DNA from: an uncultured Spirochaetota bacterium
Lineage (GTDB): Bacteria > Spirochaetota > Brevinematia > Brevinematales > JAOACQ01
Reading direction: 5' to 3'
Length of the DNA stretch: 64,000 nucleotides
NCBI GenBank assembly: GCA_963783575.1
Contig: CAWAOD010000005.1
Coordinates: 64,001-128,000 of the forward strand
Below the pieces are notes generated by a model. It was not told the DNA's origin. It saw nothing but the letters and a program-made list of their open reading frames with translations, and did no database searches. The translations under genes were made by a program, and so were the position numbers. This document shows positions 46,132 through 53,093 of this stretch, in pieces; the stretch's first letter is position 1; every line of letters begins with the position of its first letter.

Positions 46132-46246
46132 TGGAAATGATAAACTAATTTACCAGGGTAGCAATAAATGAAATTCCCATACCTGTCACAAACAGATTTC
46201 CCATAGAGAAGCTTGAAGATTACCTTTAATGAAAATTCATTAAAGG

Positions 46247-47809
46247 ATGGCAGGAATGGTGAAAAATATTATGTATCAGGACATAAAAAAACTGAAACTT
46301 TTGGGGAAAAGTAAAAATGGTGTATCCCGGGAACTGTCAATAGATATTAAGACAGTCCGGAAATATTGGACTATGAACGATGCTGAATACCAGAAAAGCC
46401 TGATGGAATTCTCTTTCCGTGAAAAAGAATTCGAAGGAATAAAAACAGATATATTGAAAGTATATGCAAAGAATGATTACATCCGGCTGAATATGTCTGC
46501 TTTGTATGACTATTTATTGGAGGTAAAAGGCAAACTACCGGCGAATGAAAATACGATGAGGAATTTCGTACATTACCTGATTGAAAGCGGGCAGCTTACC
46601 TTGAATGAAAAGCGACGGTATTACACAAAAGTGCCGGACATGCCATATGGAAAGCAGCTCCAGCTTGATTTCGGTCAATATACCGACAGATATGGCAGAA
46701 GGTATTACATATTTGCCGCGGTGTTATCCGCCAGTCGTTTTAAGTATGCGGCCCTCCAGGAGAGGCCATTCCGGACAGAAGACCTGATCAATCATCTGTT
46801 GGACTGTTTCGCATATATGGGCGGGATACCGCATGAACTTGTCATCGATCAGGACTGCACGATGGTTGCGAGTGAGAACTCAAGCGATATCATCTACACG
46901 AAAGACTTTCAGTATTTCATCGGGGAAATGGGTCTTAAAATGTATGTGTGCCGACCTGCTGACCCGGAAAGTAAGGGAAAGATTGAAAACGTAGTCAAAT
47001 TCATCAAGCACGGTTTCTTCTCAGTCCGGGAGTTCAACAGTTTAATGGAAGCGGAAGAAAGCCTGATGAAATGGCTGGAAAGAAAAGCCAACGGGAGAAT
47101 ATCCCAGGCTACAATGAAAATACCACTGATAGAGATTGAAACGGAAAGACCATATCTCCAATCTGTCAGGAATTCGATATTCCGTAAAGACAGGATAGGA
47201 GCAAGGGAAGAGCGCAGTGTAAGCGATAAATGCCGGATCGCAGTTGATGCAAGCCAGTATGATATTCCCGAAAAATACAGGAACGGTTCGGTGGACATCT
47301 ACAAGACGGGCAGTCGGCTTTTTGTCTTTGACAGGATAACGGGAGAGCAAATCGCCGAATACCGGCTTTCAGTGATTCCGGGGCAGATTGTAACCAACAG
47401 GGCAATGATCCGGGAAATGGGAAAGACTGTGCAGTTATTGAAAGAAGAAGTAAGCGGGTACTTTGATATTCCCGGCTGGAAGGATTTTCTTGAATGTAAT
47501 TTCAGGAAGTTCAATCGTTATGTAAGGGACCAATGTCTTTCCGGAAGAAAATACTTCAGGGACAAGATAATTGATACCGGGAAGCTTACACAAGCGATCT
47601 CAAACTGCCTGGAGAGTGATAGTTATTCCATGAAGGATTTGTGGGATAATTACCTGAACTGTTTTATAACAGAAAAGGCAGAAATACCCTTGAATGTAGA
47701 AAAGATTGTCAGGCCTTCAGTGAATCCTGAACACTATCTTGAAGTAGCTAAATCAGACATCGGGAAATACCAGAGTTTCTGTGACTCCATCGGGGGCCGG
47801 CAATGTTGA
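46247..47809 (+). CDS. istA: IS21 transposase
   Basis: HTH, QLDFG, L.ASRFKY and P.SKGKIEN.V. Confidence 0.93.
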   Translation: MAGMVKNIMYQDIKKLKLLGKSKNGVSRELSIDIKTVRKYWTMNDAEYQKSLMEFSFREKEFEGIKTDILKVYAKNDYIRLNMSALYDYLLEVKGKLPANENTMRNFVHYLIESGQLTLNEKRRYYTKVPDMPYGKQLQLDFGQYTDRYGRRYYIFAAVLSASRFKYAALQERPFRTEDLINHLLDCFAYMGGIPHELVIDQDCTMVASENSSDIIYTKDFQYFIGEMGLKMYVCRPADPESKGKIENVVKFIKHGFFSVREFNSLMEAEESLMKWLERKANGRISQATMKIPLIEIETERPYLQSVRNSIFRKDRIGAREERSVSDKCRIAVDASQYDIPEKYRNGSVDIYKTGSRLFVFDRITGEQIAEYRLSVIPGQIVTNRAMIREMGKTVQLLKEEVSGYFDIPGWKDFLECNFRKFNRYVRDQCLSGRKYFRDKIIDTGKLTQAISNCLESDSYSMKDLWDNYLNCFITEKAEIPLNVEKIVRPSVNPEHYLEVAKSDIGKYQSFCDSIGGRQC

Positions 47810-48552
47810 AGATAAGAGAACAAATCATAACTGCGCTTACAACTCTCGGGTTGAAGGGTATGATAAAACGGATTGATGAGGAAATTGGTGAGGCTGAAAA
47901 GGCAAAAGAGTCTTATCTGAGTTTTCTGCAGAGGCTGCTTTCTCTGGAATTGAATTATAGAGTGGAAAAACGTTTTCAGCGGAATATGGCAGGAGCACAC
48001 TTCCCGGTCCGCAAAGATGTGGAAGGTTTTAATTTTGAAAAAGTGAATGGAATATCTAAAATGGATGTTTCACAGCTATTGGATTTCTGCTGGATTGATA
48101 ATCATCATAACCTGTTGTTCTTTGGGTCTCCGGGGCTGGGGAAAACGCATCTGGCAATTAGTATCGGAATCCGGGCAGTTGAAAAGGGATATATTGTCTG
48201 CTTTGAAAGGATGACTACTCTCATTAAGTTTCTGAAAACGGCGGACATCCAGAGAAGCTCTGCTTTCAGGCTGAACCGGATGATGAAGTCACACTTATTA
48301 ATCATTGATGAGATAGGTTACACACCTATCGAAAAGAAGGAGGCAAATCTATTCTTTAGTCTTGTAAGTGAATTGTATGAAAAGACATCAATTGTGATAA
48401 CATCGAATAAGGGATTTCAGGATTGGGCTGAAATGATGGGAGACCCGATTATGACAACCGCTCTTCTGGATAGGCTTTTACATCATTCAAATATTTATAA
48501 CTTGAGCGGAGAATCTTACAGAATACAAAATTTGAATAAGGAGGTTGAGTAA
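47803..48552 (+). CDS. istB: IS21 helper ATPase
   Basis: GSPGLGKTHLA, LLIIDEIGY, TSN and LDRLLHH. Confidence 0.95.
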   Translation: MLKIREQIITALTTLGLKGMIKRIDEEIGEAEKAKESYLSFLQRLLSLELNYRVEKRFQRNMAGAHFPVRKDVEGFNFEKVNGISKMDVSQLLDFCWIDNHHNLLFFGSPGLGKTHLAISIGIRAVEKGYIVCFERMTTLIKFLKTADIQRSSAFRLNRMMKSHLLIIDEIGYTPIEKKEANLFFSLVSELYEKTSIVITSNKGFQDWAEMMGDPIMTTALLDRLLHHSNIYNLSGESYRIQNLNKEVE

Positions 48553-48693
48553 CCATTCTTTGCCTCCTCACTATGGGAAATACTCACGTGGAAGGTATGG
48601 GGAAAACTCTTGTGAAGCATATGGGAAATACTCTTGTGGAAGGGGTGGGAAATTACCCGAGCGCAGATATGGGAAAAACTCTTGACATTTCCA

Positions 48694-48743
48694 AGGCGTA
48701 GCAAAGCGTAGCCGAGCACCACAGCGCATGTACGCTGTTAGCT
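48694..48743. repeat. Truncated attC-like site (cut by IS21)
   Basis: gcacc(a/g)cagcgcat...GTTAGCT shared with the right end of 50312-50464. Confidence 0.65.
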
Positions 48744-48797
48744 GAAGGGCTTGGCAACGTCGGTATAAAAACGGCAGGACGCCGTTTGAAGCGTAAA

Positions 48798-49250
48798 TTA
48801 ATACTTCCATTTTTTAAAATCAGTAATTATTTGTTGATATAATCTATTAGCAACTTTAGGAAGTTCTTTTTTAATTGCTTCTTGAGGTGGAGTTATAAAT
48901 TGTAAATCTCTTTTTGTCATATTATATAATGATTTTATTTCTTCCATTAAATATATAACTTTTTTAGAAAAATACGGATAATATTCTATAAATGAATATA
49001 ATTCTTTTCTACAATTATATATAAAATCAGAATAAACACTAGCATTATCAGGCCATGTAATACCTTCCAAACCTTCTACAAATATTAATAATTTTTTATA
49101 TGCATTAATTTTATCTTTATCATGTAATTTTATTATTTCTAAATTTTTTTGAGTAAATGAAGTAATAACTCCTCCAATGAATACACCCAATAGTGTAAAA
49201 AAACCAAAAATAATATTTTTATCAATTAATATATCCATATACATCTCCAT
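48798..49250 (-). CDS. Hypothetical protein with N-terminal TM helix (cassette cargo)
   Basis: 150-aa AT-rich ORF; IFGFFTLLGVFIGGVIT. Confidence 0.65.
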   Translation of the reverse strand: MEMYMDILIDKNIIFGFFTLLGVFIGGVITSFTQKNLEIIKLHDKDKINAYKKLLIFVEGLEGITWPDNASVYSDFIYNCRKELYSFIEYYPYFSKKVIYLMEEIKSLYNMTKRDLQFITPPQEAIKKELPKVANRLYQQIITDFKKWKY

Positions 49251-49279
49251 TCCTGAATAATTTTATTATAAAATGATAT

Positions 49280-50194
49280 TTATCTATTAATTTTTAGATC
49301 ATTAAAAGTATGTACATTATTTAAATCATAAAAATATATGGTTTTTAATGTTTTTTTAGAAGAATAGTAATCAGTGTATATCAATTTGTATTGAAATTTT
49401 AGTGACTTATCAAAATAGATATATTCAGTCTCTGTTGCACCAGGTAAAATGTTTATTTCATATAATCTATTATATGATATTGTAGAAGATTTTGTCAGAC
49501 CCTCAATCAGAAAAAACTGATTTTTAGGATTAATTTTAGTAATATATATGCTGTTCGTGTTTACAATTTTAAGTTTCATTTCCATATTATCTGAATAATC
49601 ATCAATTATATTACTCACAATGCTTATTGAGCTTAAAGTATTATAATTATTATTAATAGAATATAGATTAAATCTGTTATATAGGTCATAGCAAAAAATT
49701 GATAAACTGGAAATATATTTTGAATCTGGATATTGATTTTGCAATTCAATCACAGTATTTTCCAAATTAAAATAATCAATATATTTTATAATGTTTGTAG
49801 ATTTATCCAATATATCAAAAATAAAAAATAATTTAGATAGTAGAATATTGTTGGTTATTAGATTTAATCTATTTGTGTAAAGTGAATTTGAGGTAAAGTC
49901 TTTGTTAATATCTTTAAGAAATCCGCTGTAAAATGCAGTAATATACATAATATCATCAAGAATATTTGTATTATCAATATTATTATTTATAAATCCATTT
50001 ATTTCATAAAGGTTTAAGATATAATTACTGATATTACTAATTGTATCTATATCATTTATGGAAGTATTTGTAATTATAGAAAATAATTTCATTAAATTTG
50101 ATTCTAAAAAGTTTTTATTAATATCTCCAAAAATATCTGAACAAAATAGGGTTAATAAGATAATAATAATAGTTTTCATTATTCTTTTATACAT
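49280..50194 (-). CDS. Hypothetical exported Asn/Ile-rich protein (cassette cargo)
   Basis: AGGAGG RBS before ATG 50194; signal peptide; very AT-rich. Confidence 0.6.
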   Translation of the reverse strand: MYKRIMKTIIIILLTLFCSDIFGDINKNFLESNLMKLFSIITNTSINDIDTISNISNYILNLYEINGFINNNIDNTNILDDIMYITAFYSGFLKDINKDFTSNSLYTNRLNLITNNILLSKLFFIFDILDKSTNIIKYIDYFNLENTVIELQNQYPDSKYISSLSIFCYDLYNRFNLYSINNNYNTLSSISIVSNIIDDYSDNMEMKLKIVNTNSIYITKINPKNQFFLIEGLTKSSTISYNRLYEINILPGATETEYIYFDKSLKFQYKLIYTDYYSSKKTLKTIYFYDLNNVHTFNDLKINR

Positions 50195-50311
50195 GTTATC
50201 CCTCCTGTATTTCAAATCACTAAATAAAAATAACGTTTTGTGTTTAATATCATTTCCAGTCCGCCACGATGGCGGACATTATTGTAATATTATAGCATTG
50301 CCAAGCTTTTC

Positions 50312-50464
50312 AGCTAACGTACATGTGTATGCGACGTTGCCAGGTCCGTAAGGACTGGCGTGAGCTTTGCCGCCGCAAAGCGAATGCCAGAGGGCAATGT
50401 GGCGAAGCCCGAGGAGCGCCCGCAGTTTACGAGGACGCACCGCAGCGCATACACAACGTTATGT
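50312..50464. repeat. attC-like recombination site (153 bp)
   Basis: AGCTAAC...GTTATGT outer boxes; inner perfect IR TGTGTATGCG (50324-50333) / CGCATACACA (50446-50455); GC-rich island in AT-rich DNA. Confidence 0.7.
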
Positions 50465-50977
50465 GCAGTGCTGGCGGTCGATTTTCATATAACCTTTTCT
50501 TTATCATATTTCATTTCTACATGAAAATTAATTATTGAAAATCGAGGCTTTAACCTGCCGCAATGTAATTTTAAATAAAATTTATAATAAAATAATGAAA
50601 ATTTTGACTATGACTTTGGTCACATTTTTATATCATTATATACAGTATAGAATAAAAACACAAAATATTTGAAAAAAAATGAAAAATAACCAGGCAAAAA
50701 TTTGCGTTGACTCTCCAATTTTGCTATCATACTAATCAGGAATTTGTCTCTGAAAACAGGCTTTCTCATCAAATTCCTGATTAGTATGACAATCATCTCA
50801 ATGATTGCTGGTTATTATTCATTTTTTCTCTTTTCCATTTGTGTTTTCTTATAAAAATGTAATTAATCTATCAAAATTTTCATTTTACCATAATTACATT
50901 GCGGGAGATCGTTTCATATATCTCCGATATATGATGCGTATCGTTACAGGTTAAAGCCAGCCAGCATTGCATATAAC
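50458..50977. other. ORF-less, cassette-like, 520-bp nested fold-back element
   Basis: At least 7 nested inverted-repeat pairs, including a perfect 20-bp pair 50727-50746/50770-50789. Confidence 0.75.
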
Positions 50978-51381
50978 TCGATATATACGCATTGCGTATA
51001 TTACTCTAATTTCGGAGTGATATGCGCACTATGTATATTACTTCAAAATACTTGTAAAATACAAACTTATTAAAAAACTTAGTAATATTATAACAAATAT
51101 TCTGCCGATCAACGGATATATTTCTATTATAGCATTTTAATTTATAGTTTGTCAATCACAATAAAATGCACAACTTATCATCCCAATGGTTTCCGGATAT
51201 TTGAAAATTTATTGTTGAAAATGTTGAAATTGAATACAGAATTAAATGAAATAAAGGCTATTATGCCATAGTACCCTTTATTTTTTGCTTAATCTGATAA
51301 TATATTATACAATATTAGTATTAATTAATGCCGAATAAGACGGATTATTTATTTACCATATTGTAATATAAAGAATTATCC

Positions 51382-51455
<74 letters not shown>

Positions 51456-51458
51456 ATG

Positions 51459-53093
51459 TTATTTTTTGAAAAGTTTTTCTTCCTCATCCTGAACAATTGA
51501 AGAGGCGCTGTTTAACAGGTTACCGATCTGGTTCATAATATTATAGTATTTTGAATGAAGCGTATTTAATGAAAAAAGTCTCCTGACATTGGTACGGAAT
51601 TGCTGAAATGTTCCGTATTTGTTGATTTTATCGGGTTCATTCGAATCCGATGAAATAAGTTTTTTAATTTCTTCGATAAATCTCCTTCCAAGGTCTATCC
51701 TGATACCCTCCACCCTGAATGGATAATCACGGATAATTTTATTAATACGGTCATAAAGCCAATATGTGGAATCAACTATCATCTGATCCTGTACCCGTGG
51801 GTCTGAAGCGTCATTTACGATGATCTTACCGTTAAAAACGAAATTTGAAGTATTTGTTCTTCTTTTTGAGGATTCCTTATTGAATCCTTCAAATCCATTC
51901 TTAAAATTGGTGACCATGCCTTCTTTGCTGTATTCAGGAGACAGGTCGCTTTCCATGCTGATAAGAAATTTATCCAGAAGGTTCAGGATATCCAGCGCGG
52001 GCCTGCATTCTATTTTCGGCCAAAATTTTTCCTCTGAAATTTCTTTCTGTTTTGGTTCCTCTTTTATTTCCTCTTTATTTGGTTCCTCTTCTTTTATTTC
52101 TCTTTTGAATAGATTAAGTATCCAATCAAAAATCTTAGATAATAAAAAGGTTTCCGGCTGTTCCTGATCCAGAAGCCTGAATTCACCAGCTTCAATCGAT
52201 ATGATTTTACCTATTGATAACGCGGCCGGCTTTAATAAATCTATTGTAAAGCAAAATACCGCATCTCTTAAGATTTCCAGTAATTTATTGATAAGAGATA
52301 AAATCGGAGGATATTTTTCCAGTTGAATGGCAGCCAGGCCCATTTCGGAAGCAGTTTCCCGGAAACCGGATAAAAAATAGTAAAGTCCGCTGATAAACGA
52401 AATTAAATGGCCTGATTTCAATTGAGGAAGTTTTATGCTTAAAGCGTAATCATATAATTCACACACCAATATACATATTGAATGAAGTTTTTCAAGGTCC
52501 CGGAAATAGCTGACCAGCTGCTCAAGTTTATGTGCCGATTCCTTGGAATTATCGCTTCCCAGAGAATTGAAATAAATTTGAGTCTCGACTTTAACCGTTT
52601 CCAATAAAATTGTGACCGGTTCAATGGGTTTACCGATAATATTTAGAAAATAGGTTTGTTCCGGTGTCTTTATATCTTTAAAATACCCGATCAACAGCGA
52701 GCGGTCTATAAAATCGCCGGGAGTCAGCTTCGTAAACTGGGAGAATTGAAAACTGCCTTGGTCGATAAGAGGGGGGTATTTTTTTTTATGCTTACGATAA
52801 TCCAGTTTAAAAAAGAAATTCTTGAATATTAAAAACCGGTTCTCCTGGAAGAATAATTTTTTATAATATTCGAAAGAAAGATGATTGATAATTTTATGAG
52901 CCTCTTTAGTCAGCTTCAGTTCGTTATCAAAACTGAAAAATTGAAACTTGGCCTCATCCAGATTTATTTTTAAAATTTCATAGGGAGTTTCTTTCGGGCT
53001 TTCCGTCATATAAAAACATCCTTCCTTGAAAAGGAAAATAAATAAGAGGAACTTTCCTGGTTTTTGAACTGCCCAAATATTATTTTCATTCAT
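51459..53093 (-). CDS. Hypothetical protein (start possibly 53009)
   Basis: Long ORF with no recognised motif. Confidence 0.65.
   Translation of the reverse strand: MNENNIWAVQKPGKFLLFIFLFKEGCFYMTESPKETPYEILKINLDEAKFQFFSFDNELKLTKEAHKIINHLSFEYYKKLFFQENRFLIFKNFFFKLDYRKHKKKYPPLIDQGSFQFSQFTKLTPGDFIDRSLLIGYFKDIKTPEQTYFLNIIGKPIEPVTILLETVKVETQIYFNSLGSDNSKESAHKLEQLVSYFRDLEKLHSICILVCELYDYALSIKLPQLKSGHLISFISGLYYFLSGFRETASEMGLAAIQLEKYPPILSLINKLLEILRDAVFCFTIDLLKPAALSIGKIISIEAGEFRLLDQEQPETFLLSKIFDWILNLFKREIKEEEPNKEEIKEEPKQKEISEEKFWPKIECRPALDILNLLDKFLISMESDLSPEYSKEGMVTNFKNGFEGFNKESSKRRTNTSNFVFNGKIIVNDASDPRVQDQMIVDSTYWLYDRINKIIRDYPFRVEGIRIDLGRRFIEEIKKLISSDSNEPDKINKYGTFQQFRTNVRRLFSLNTLHSKYYNIMNQIGNLLNSASSIVQDEEEKLFKK

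Follow-up and report, generated by a model that had tools for sequence, protein, structure and literature searches.

Related cassette systems

Integrons are the closest described systems to the locus considered here. They combine a promoter, an attI site and co-oriented cassettes of a gene plus a hairpin, which are exchanged by crossover at GTT/AAC. In the accessible text of PMC5027507, the classical R box measures 7 bp and the G·T bias of the bottom strand is an average skew. The integron integrase (IntI) carries a specific insertion, I2 (a domain of ~35 residues near patch III), which, according to the accessible parts of PMC8138268 and PMC4792948, integrons cannot function without and which only their integrases possess. 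The subject of this work is an integron-like cassette array in a stretch of 64,000 nucleotides (the window) from an uncultured Spirochaetota bacterium (assembly GCA_963783575.1, contig CAWAOD010000005.1, positions 64,001 to 128,000). This array is probably a satellite, composed of a predicted promoter, an attI-like site and two cassettes, that is moved in trans by an I2-less tyrosine recombinase acting on folded bottom strands. In the following, G000 denotes the source genome (the window is C5:64001-128000), other G numbers are relatives and L numbers are fetched loci.

Several hallmarks of an integron are found in G000: an attI-like site lies beside a recombinase gene at the start of an array, the cassettes are co-oriented and each ends in an AAC...GTT hairpin, exchange occurs at GTT/AAC and the G·T bias is again on the bottom strand. 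The system works like an integron, through a mechanism that we infer. The differences concern the enzyme and the sites. The cassette arms are ~22 bp long (7-9 in classical integrons), the sites span 145-245 bp, and the G·T pair occupies a fixed position (position 11) instead of being an average skew. The sites depart from the classical attC geometry, in which a 7-bp R box is combined with an unpaired central spacer and conserved extrahelical bases, and the recombinase has no I2 insertion. For these two reasons the system is not filed as an IntI integron. Rather, an I2-less recombinase that likely moves long-armed cassettes suggests an alternative mode of integron operation.

The array can also be compared to the CALIN and In0 types (PMC4889954, accessible text), which likewise are cassette clusters without a nearby integrase, with the enzyme encoded elsewhere and with splitting driven by insertion sequences (IS). 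In contrast, the satellites described here keep an attI-like site and a common promoter module (8 copies), and the distant enzyme is not IntI. Because each satellite retains its own attI and promoter module, they look able to capture cassettes. The chromosomal integrons of spirochaetes with a co-oriented intI, which we take to be of the Treponema type, belong to the same phylum, and in the fetched loci their integrase gene is also co-oriented with the array. Unlike the system described here, they encode a full IntI (motif spacing 99-100) and have sites of mostly 52-60 bp with a median end pairing of 9 bp. Xer-type sites are laid out as an 11-bp arm, a 6-bp spacer and an 11-bp arm. The same 11-6-11 layout is seen in the attI core, and the motif spacing of the recombinase (58-62) is near that of XerC/D and XerA (65). 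However, the partner sites are here imperfect hairpins with little sequence identity, arranged in gene arrays. Finally, three of the seven intact orthologues of the recombinase pass the NF040815 cut-off of the 'integron-like' tyrosine recombinase subgroup (PMC8138268), whose description, in its accessible text, calls the insertion essential and gives no arrays or sites for members without it.

We found no published account of cassette arrays without I2, of long arms in cassettes or of a wobble at a fixed position (most subscription papers were outside the search). Profiles based on I2 would miss the system, since TIGR02249 stays below its cut-off. According to the accessible text of PMC9024848, IntegronFinder 2.0 detects very few complete integrons in Bacteroidetes and Firmicutes; I2-less arrays occur in both. 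If the I2-less enzyme moves cassettes, this would be a second, overlooked route of gene capture over several phyla. In that case, the evolution of integrons from Xer-like enzymes could also be tested on a small set of components, namely an intact enzyme of 351 aa, an attI core of 28 bp and sites that bear one invariant wobble and measurable arms. What is added here is a controlled measurement of the arms, the solo heads and the rod cassette.

The array in the window

The array is read on the minus strand and comprises the following features:

51126..51155, minus strand: predicted cassette promoter (TTGACA, 18-nt spacer, TG, TATAAT), pointing toward the attI-like site
50966..51040, minus strand: attI-like head, whose core at 50966-50993 has two 11-bp arms around a 6-bp spacer
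50458..50977, minus strand: body of cassette 1, 520 bp, gene-less (start arm 50960-50977, end arm 50458-50475)
50316..50460, minus strand: attC-like hairpin site 1, AAC...GTT, 145 bp, part of cassette 1
48737..50318, minus strand: body of cassette 2, 1582 bp (start arm 50298-50318, end arm 48737-48757)
49280..50215, minus strand: orphan open reading frame (ORF) of 311 aa (304 from ATG), cargo of cassette 2, no Pfam/NCBIfam match
48798..49250, minus strand: orphan ORF of 150 aa, cargo of cassette 2, no family match
48694..48739, minus strand: beginning of the IS21-interrupted attC-like site 2 (inner-motif scan)
46132..48693, plus strand: IS21-family element closing the array (istA 46247-47809, istB 47803-48552), a hybrid copy with non-matching flanks

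The original prediction had proposed an integrase-less array on the minus strand, headed by an attI-like site, with a large palindrome as attC-like site and unusually long complementarity between the cassette ends. The palindrome is located exactly as predicted (50312-50464, 153 bp, AGCTAAC...GTTATGT). Its inner 10-bp arm is perfect, and it contains a 3-nt asymmetric loop beside GTT and a GC-rich branched centre (61% GC between the cores vs ~21% in the surrounding cargo region). As DNA, it folds at z = -3.0 on both strands, with 0 and 1 of 200 shuffles equalling it. The ends pair at 19/21 positions in the unit 48737-50318 and at 16/18 in the unit 50458-50977. All four mismatches are G·T on the plus strand (in cassette 2 at positions 11 and 12 of the arms). 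The second copy of the site is indeed interrupted by the IS21-family element, with the break at 48693/48694.

In the attI-like head, the GTT is found at 50977-50975, flanked by palindromic boxes at 50983-51001 and 51020-51038. Over 63 bp, this head is 92% identical to the site directly behind a recombinase gene on the same contig (C5:458195-458257), which bears out the proposed attI-like head. The promoter upstream of it matches the sigma-70 consensus perfectly and is the predicted cassette promoter; it is the sole 12/12 match to the consensus among 24 promoter-like matches in 48600-51500.

The window contains one full and one cut site and no tyrosine recombinase gene, as all 15 PF00589 matches of the genome lie outside C5:64001-128000. 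The term integrase-less is therefore correct for the window. It does not hold for the genome: a sister array elsewhere on this contig starts with a matching I2-less recombinase, whose orthologues head such arrays in relatives. In an Rfam scan of 48500-51600, a tRNA was the only match, and no family was found for the hairpin site or for the rod discussed below.

Long cassette ends and a fixed wobble

For the analysis of the arms, the limits of each cassette were taken from the inner motifs only. After removal of nine IS-broken intervals and one duplicate, 14 of 24 intervals remained as cassettes in G000; in relatives 11 of 16 remained (two broken, three duplicates). In G000, positions 12-19 of the two ends pair at 7.43 of 8 positions, compared to 3.21 with the ends permuted (0/5000 permutations reach the observed value). 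The median pairing run amounts to 22.5 bp for cognate and 6 for non-cognate ends. Each of the 14 cassettes has its own arm word. The same is observed in relatives (6.18 vs 2.82 permuted, 0/5000; median 18), and the median arm in arrays behind distant orthologues is 15 in 17 Bacteroidota-type cassettes and 18 in five Desulfitobacterium cassettes. As a control, 59 intervals were taken from eight loci adjoining a canonical IntI in the same phylum, a set that includes a few false intervals and is approximate, as explained below; here positions 12-19 pair at 1.93, vs 2.00 permuted (3555/5000), with a median of 9 bp. The long end pairing is thus general within the system and specific to each cassette. 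The pairing of about 20 bp beyond the classical attC model, first noticed in two units of the window, recurs genome-wide.

A second feature is the wobble at position 11. The cassette start carries A and the cassette end C at this position, resulting in G·T on the bottom strand and A·C on the top strand. The bottom-strand G·T is found in 14/14 cassettes of G000, 8/11 of relatives, 15/17 of the Bacteroidota type and 5/5 of Desulfitobacterium, but in only 31% of the controls. Because both position-11 letters are fixed, the wobble persists in all 15 in-array sites examined.

The arms could also be a by-product of cassette making, in which one end is copied onto the other while the same enzyme recombines the first 11-12 bp only. 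This explanation of the long pairing is in line with the arm medians differing by lineage (22.5, 18, 18 and 15), with the movement of cassettes although the in-array sites lack long pairing, and with the finding that only positions 1-3, 8, 10 and 11 are common to different cassettes. A plain copy, however, would yield perfect repeats, and not the A·C/G·T seen at position 11 in 14/14 cassettes. Moreover, positions 12-19 have 54% GC in a cargo region of ~21% GC, and in the G005 homologue of cassette 1 the arm sequence has changed while the pairing was kept. A by-product is therefore considered unlikely.

The predicted folds of the array and of the free cassettes differ. In the array, the outer stem of a site has a mean energy of -7.6 kcal/mol (15 sites), compared to about -21.6 kcal/mol for the two ends of one cassette. 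For cassette 1, the predicted circle form reaches -56.4 vs -46.2 for the array form. The folded sites show an asymmetric loop of 1-3 nt adjoining the crossover and a mostly paired spacer. The pairing covers 15-25 bp, and the inner arm has a single bulged base in only part of the sites, that of the window not among them.

Cassette movement at GTT

The movement of cassettes can be read from the junctions of shared units. In G000, the block at C5:472319 and the block at C9:383977 have 2119 identical bases; the identity begins two bases before GTT, and the hairpins before it differ. In G011, two arrays behind near-identical recombinase genes share cassettes in a different order. Here the identity sets in 0, 1, 1 or 8 bases before GTT, spans the cassette and its hairpin, and stops 3 or 5 bases into the next unit. 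The crossover is resolved to the GTT triplet plus the few flanking bases that the sites have in common. Since the identity runs through the cassette and its hairpin, each hairpin is part of the cassette that precedes it, which is also the case in integrons. The mobile unit consists of the body plus the downstream hairpin, with the crossover inside GTT, and this corrects the GTT...AAC body alone that had originally been taken as the unit. The cassettes are hence variably placed between arrays, with junctions at GTT as anticipated. Among 11 family genomes, cassette 1 of the window has one homologue (in G005), and for cassette 2 no counterpart was found.

Sites and attI-like heads in the genome

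The sites of the window are not isolated. A motif scan revealed 20 full hairpin sites in G000 (145-245 bp, two of them identical), and 47 half-sites were found by a profile scan, of which 45 cluster in eight regions and two stand alone. These motif and position weight matrix scans replaced an early de novo hairpin scan with a 220-bp limit, which gave seven sites and missed the long ones. The sites alternate one-to-one with co-oriented genes behind attI, and their central parts are mosaic and modular. In the site at C5:472170-472321 the two inner arms are mismatched, which suggests recombination inside the hairpin centre between two sites.

Dispersed hairpin repeats of the REP/BOX type (repetitive extragenic palindromes), or the ends of miniature inverted-repeat transposable elements (MITEs), might share this mosaic make-up of the site centres, and lone decayed halves do exist. 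A set of repeats with no cassette function is nevertheless contradicted by the one-to-one alternation with co-oriented genes behind attI, by arms that are specific to each cassette and by the precise exchange at GTT, and is hardly credible. A MITE or other transposon with terminal inverted repeats was rejected as well: there is no single terminal repeat (14 arm words in 14 cassettes), and the unit takes along a hairpin that lies beyond its repeats.

Nine attI-like heads are present in G000, one directly behind the recombinase gene and eight solo, including that of the window. The attI-like site that starts the main array lies within 70 bp of the gene end (C5:458246). The arms of the attI core resemble the consensus of the cassette starts. 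All eight solo heads lack a recombinase gene and have the common promoter module, of which G000 contains 11 copies, eight of them upstream of an attI-like site. Within 520 bases of the three others (C15:196812, C15:199816 and C9:531558) there is no attI; these copies may be remnants of heads, or may now serve ordinary genes as promoters. In the solo heads at C4:27047-26976 and C13:218715-218635, the C-terminal 24-27 residues of the recombinase are still encoded between promoter and attI (a permissive search gave best E values of 0.02 and 0.003). We infer from this that deletions in complete platforms gave rise to the solo heads. They would offer a route to integrase-less arrays that are still able to acquire genes.

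The recombination sites also seem to attract an insertion sequence. An IS1182-like element is found at C5:475054-476271 and in 11 other places in G000 (216 bits, below the cut-off of 270). It ends exactly at AAC (nine) or GTT (three), with 12/12 end matches, mostly in site halves, and looks like an element that targets these sites.

The I2-less recombinase

The largest array of G000 is headed by a tyrosine recombinase gene at C5:457129-458181, ~342 kb from the window. This gene has two frameshifts, both in homopolymer runs. Intact orthologues of 345-353 aa are found in G011 (four copies, among them L036:18148-19203 on the minus strand, and one cut by the contig end), G005, G004, G002 and G009; no array is evident at the G009 copy. 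The closest match by both sequence and fold is VchIntI4 (VchIntIA/IntI4, PDB 2a3v). In the alignment to 2a3v, query residues 251-276 span residues 181-248 and thereby skip the IntI insertion. The spacing between the two motifs is 58-62 aa in 79 I2-less proteins, 99-100 in 22 IntI and 65 in two Xer proteins. Overall, ~41 residues spanning I2 are missing compared to IntI, and an extra N-terminal domain of ~80 aa is present. All eight scanned proteins fall under the TIGR02249 cut-off of 265.

The extra domain weakly resembles HARP/MotCF. Two of the seven intact proteins match PF07443 (HARP) at E = 1e-4, below the cut-off. For a model with a pLDDT of 67, the best VIA match was the C-terminal domain of T4 MotA (Z 5.4, root-mean-square deviation (rmsd) 2.3, 62 aligned residues), and SMARCAL1 HARP gave Z 4.0 (rmsd 2.0, 46 aligned). 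Foldseek returned no match for the domain at E <= 0.001, and the Atlas search gave unnamed clusters only, all under 0.9.

From a genome collection, 80 orthologue loci were obtained, of which 75 could be analysed. A strict pattern found an attI-like site behind the orthologue in 10 of these 75. Downstream of the orthologues, 39 candidate sites with the position-11 mark were counted in 216 kb, vs 1 in 515 kb upstream; these counts, like the canonical-IntI control set above, are approximate because the generic site finder under-counts (4 in L062, where more are actually present) and yields false sites. Contig ends within 2 kb are also more frequent downstream (50) than upstream (12).

Could an ordinary CALIN be present, derived from a canonical IntI integron that is absent from a 90%-complete assembly? 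Both the AAC/GTT cores and the G·T bias are also features of classical integrons (PMC5027507, accessible text), such clusters are common (PMC4889954, accessible text), and 30 of 301 genomes of the phylum have an IntI. However, no IntI was found in G000 or in the 11 family genomes, the attI-like site lies directly behind the I2-less gene, and the sites are longer, with arms sharply unlike those of the canonical controls. This possibility is largely refuted and very improbable.

It was equally considered that the host XerC/XerD moves the units at dif-like sites, the neighbouring recombinase being a bystander. Host XerC/XerD is known to move pdif modules and Xer-exploiting phages at dif-like sites. 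G000 contains two Xer-like genes, the attI core has the 11-6-11 layout of a Xer site, and the dedicated recombinase gene is frameshifted. Against this, the marked sites sit downstream, and not upstream, of the I2-less gene across phyla, and the C-terminal codons of the recombinase are kept at two solo heads; a bystander role thus has very little probability. The enzyme that likely moves the cassettes is the I2-less recombinase, given that its gene is directly followed by the same attI and that its last codons persist in two solo heads.

In a quick tree, the 22 IntI proteins form one clade (support 100) nested among the I2-less proteins, with weak deep supports. This tree permits an ancestral position of the latter.

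Other recombinases were also noted. On a plasmid of Clostridium estertheticum (L047, NZ_CP077617.1), an IS91-family transposase, and no obvious array, accompanies a related recombinase; given this pairing, part of the family may serve other single-strand elements. On a plasmid of Chryseobacterium (L046, NZ_CP041688.1), small co-oriented genes, broken by IS110 and a group II intron, lie behind a related recombinase. The five paired tyrosine-recombinase modules at C5:3402-32380 and C15:6573-27747 in G000 (~450 + 350-370 aa, some copies identical) are a separate mobile element family.

Proposed mechanism

In the proposed mechanism, the cassettes swap at the GTT triplet, and the I2-less tyrosine recombinase likely acts in trans. 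The bottom strand would be the one that recombines, since the pair at position 11 is invariably G·T on this strand, with A·C on the opposite one; this strand bias is also what suggests single-stranded DNA as the substrate. The folded bottom strand would rebuild attI-like arms from one strand. The fixed wobble and the asymmetric loop would mark strand and side, and exchange would then take place at AAC/GTT. As the in-array stem is weak, re-pairing of the cassette's own arms could drive and lock the excision. The product would be a stable single-stranded circle, primed for insertion at attI beside the promoter. Where the recombinase gene was lost and a strong promoter gained, solo heads would provide several sites for capture and expression served by one enzyme.

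Several observations weigh against this satellite reading. The recombinase of G000 may be dead or mis-assembled, and the likeness of its N-terminal 80 residues to HARP/MotCF is weak. Of the 24 orthologue loci with at least 3 kb downstream, nine have 0-1 site and only seven have at least two marked sites. The energy advantage of the bottom strand is only ~1 kcal/mol (11/14). The arm is shorter in Bacteroidota-type arrays, from which it follows that 20 bp is not required by the enzyme family. Lastly, the shuffled arrays of G011 may be strain variants in one bin, although rearrangement is evident either way.

A more far-reaching version of the mechanism is doubtful. In this version, the cognate 20-bp ends and the two flanking hairpins would pre-form a four-way junction on single-stranded DNA, from which an ordinary Xer-type catalytic domain, aided by a HARP-like domain for branched DNA, releases the circle without I2. 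The cognate stem would form first, and one exchange by ordinary junction resolution would suffice. The system (in spirochaetes, Bacteroidota, Bacillota, Nitrospirota and some archaea) would be ancestral to IntI, the satellites would be non-autonomous capture sites, and the rod would be a new structured RNA or DNA cargo. IntI itself keeps this ancestral activity, ordinary junction resolution, on double-stranded sites (PMC4792948, accessible text).

Surroundings and cargo of the array

On its far side, the array is closed by the IS21-family element. The left flank of this copy continues a marR gene whose start flanks another copy in G000 (C10:70600-73163). The right flank of the C10 copy matches the left flank of the window copy, and both flanks encode parts of one MarR gene. 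The remaining array was therefore presumably moved or lost via recombination between IS copies. The marR gene, an outer-membrane protein gene and other genes to the left of IS21 were rejected as array members, as the IS is a hybrid joint. On the promoter side, a divergent tRNA-Arg(CCT) gene (51382-51455 of the window) lies ~230 bp upstream of the array promoter. A tRNA-Arg as general target of the arrays was rejected, with tRNAs found only at L058 among 11 array loci scanned.

The longest sense ORF in the body of cassette 1 is 58 aa. Instead of a gene, the cassette contains one ~500-nt rod, with an RNA fold of z = -15.2 (0/100 shuffles as good; z = -16 without the arms). In a survey of 19 cassette bodies with eight shuffles each, only cassette 1 (z -16) and its G005 homologue (z -8) passed -6, the next being -5.2. 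The homologue (L040:1575-2055) is 69% identical and is the first cassette behind an intact recombinase. In a two-sequence alignment, 31 of 118 pairs are changed on both sides. The rod cassette is conserved in two genera, with compensatory changes and in both copies first behind attI, and may be a structured RNA or a structured single-stranded DNA element. Among 401 genomes of the phylum, the homologue in G005 was the only real match, the rest being short AT-rich matches with E 6e-7 or weaker. Three metagenome pattern matches to the rod were dismissed as chance, as all lie within one small unrelated ORF. The folds of other gene-less cassettes are weaker (z 0.2 to -3.2), and a rod is hence no general trait of this type. 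One of them is a 428-bp cassette in G011 (L036, L037) with five occurrences over two arrays, often in tandem, which folds ordinarily (z 0.2 and -1.5).

For the cargo proteins of cassette 2, no Pfam/NCBIfam family and no homologue was found. The 311-aa ORF reached a best Atlas score of 0.80, which is a lead only, with nothing at 0.9; the homologue search with the 150-aa ORF recovered only itself among 43 candidates. The main array also carries, as cargo, a helicase-like protein of 852 aa that weakly matches the IscB family toward its C-terminus (C5:469521-472079) and a RelE/ParE-like toxin gene with a small partner (C5:476610-477279). These are possible defence and stabilising cassettes.

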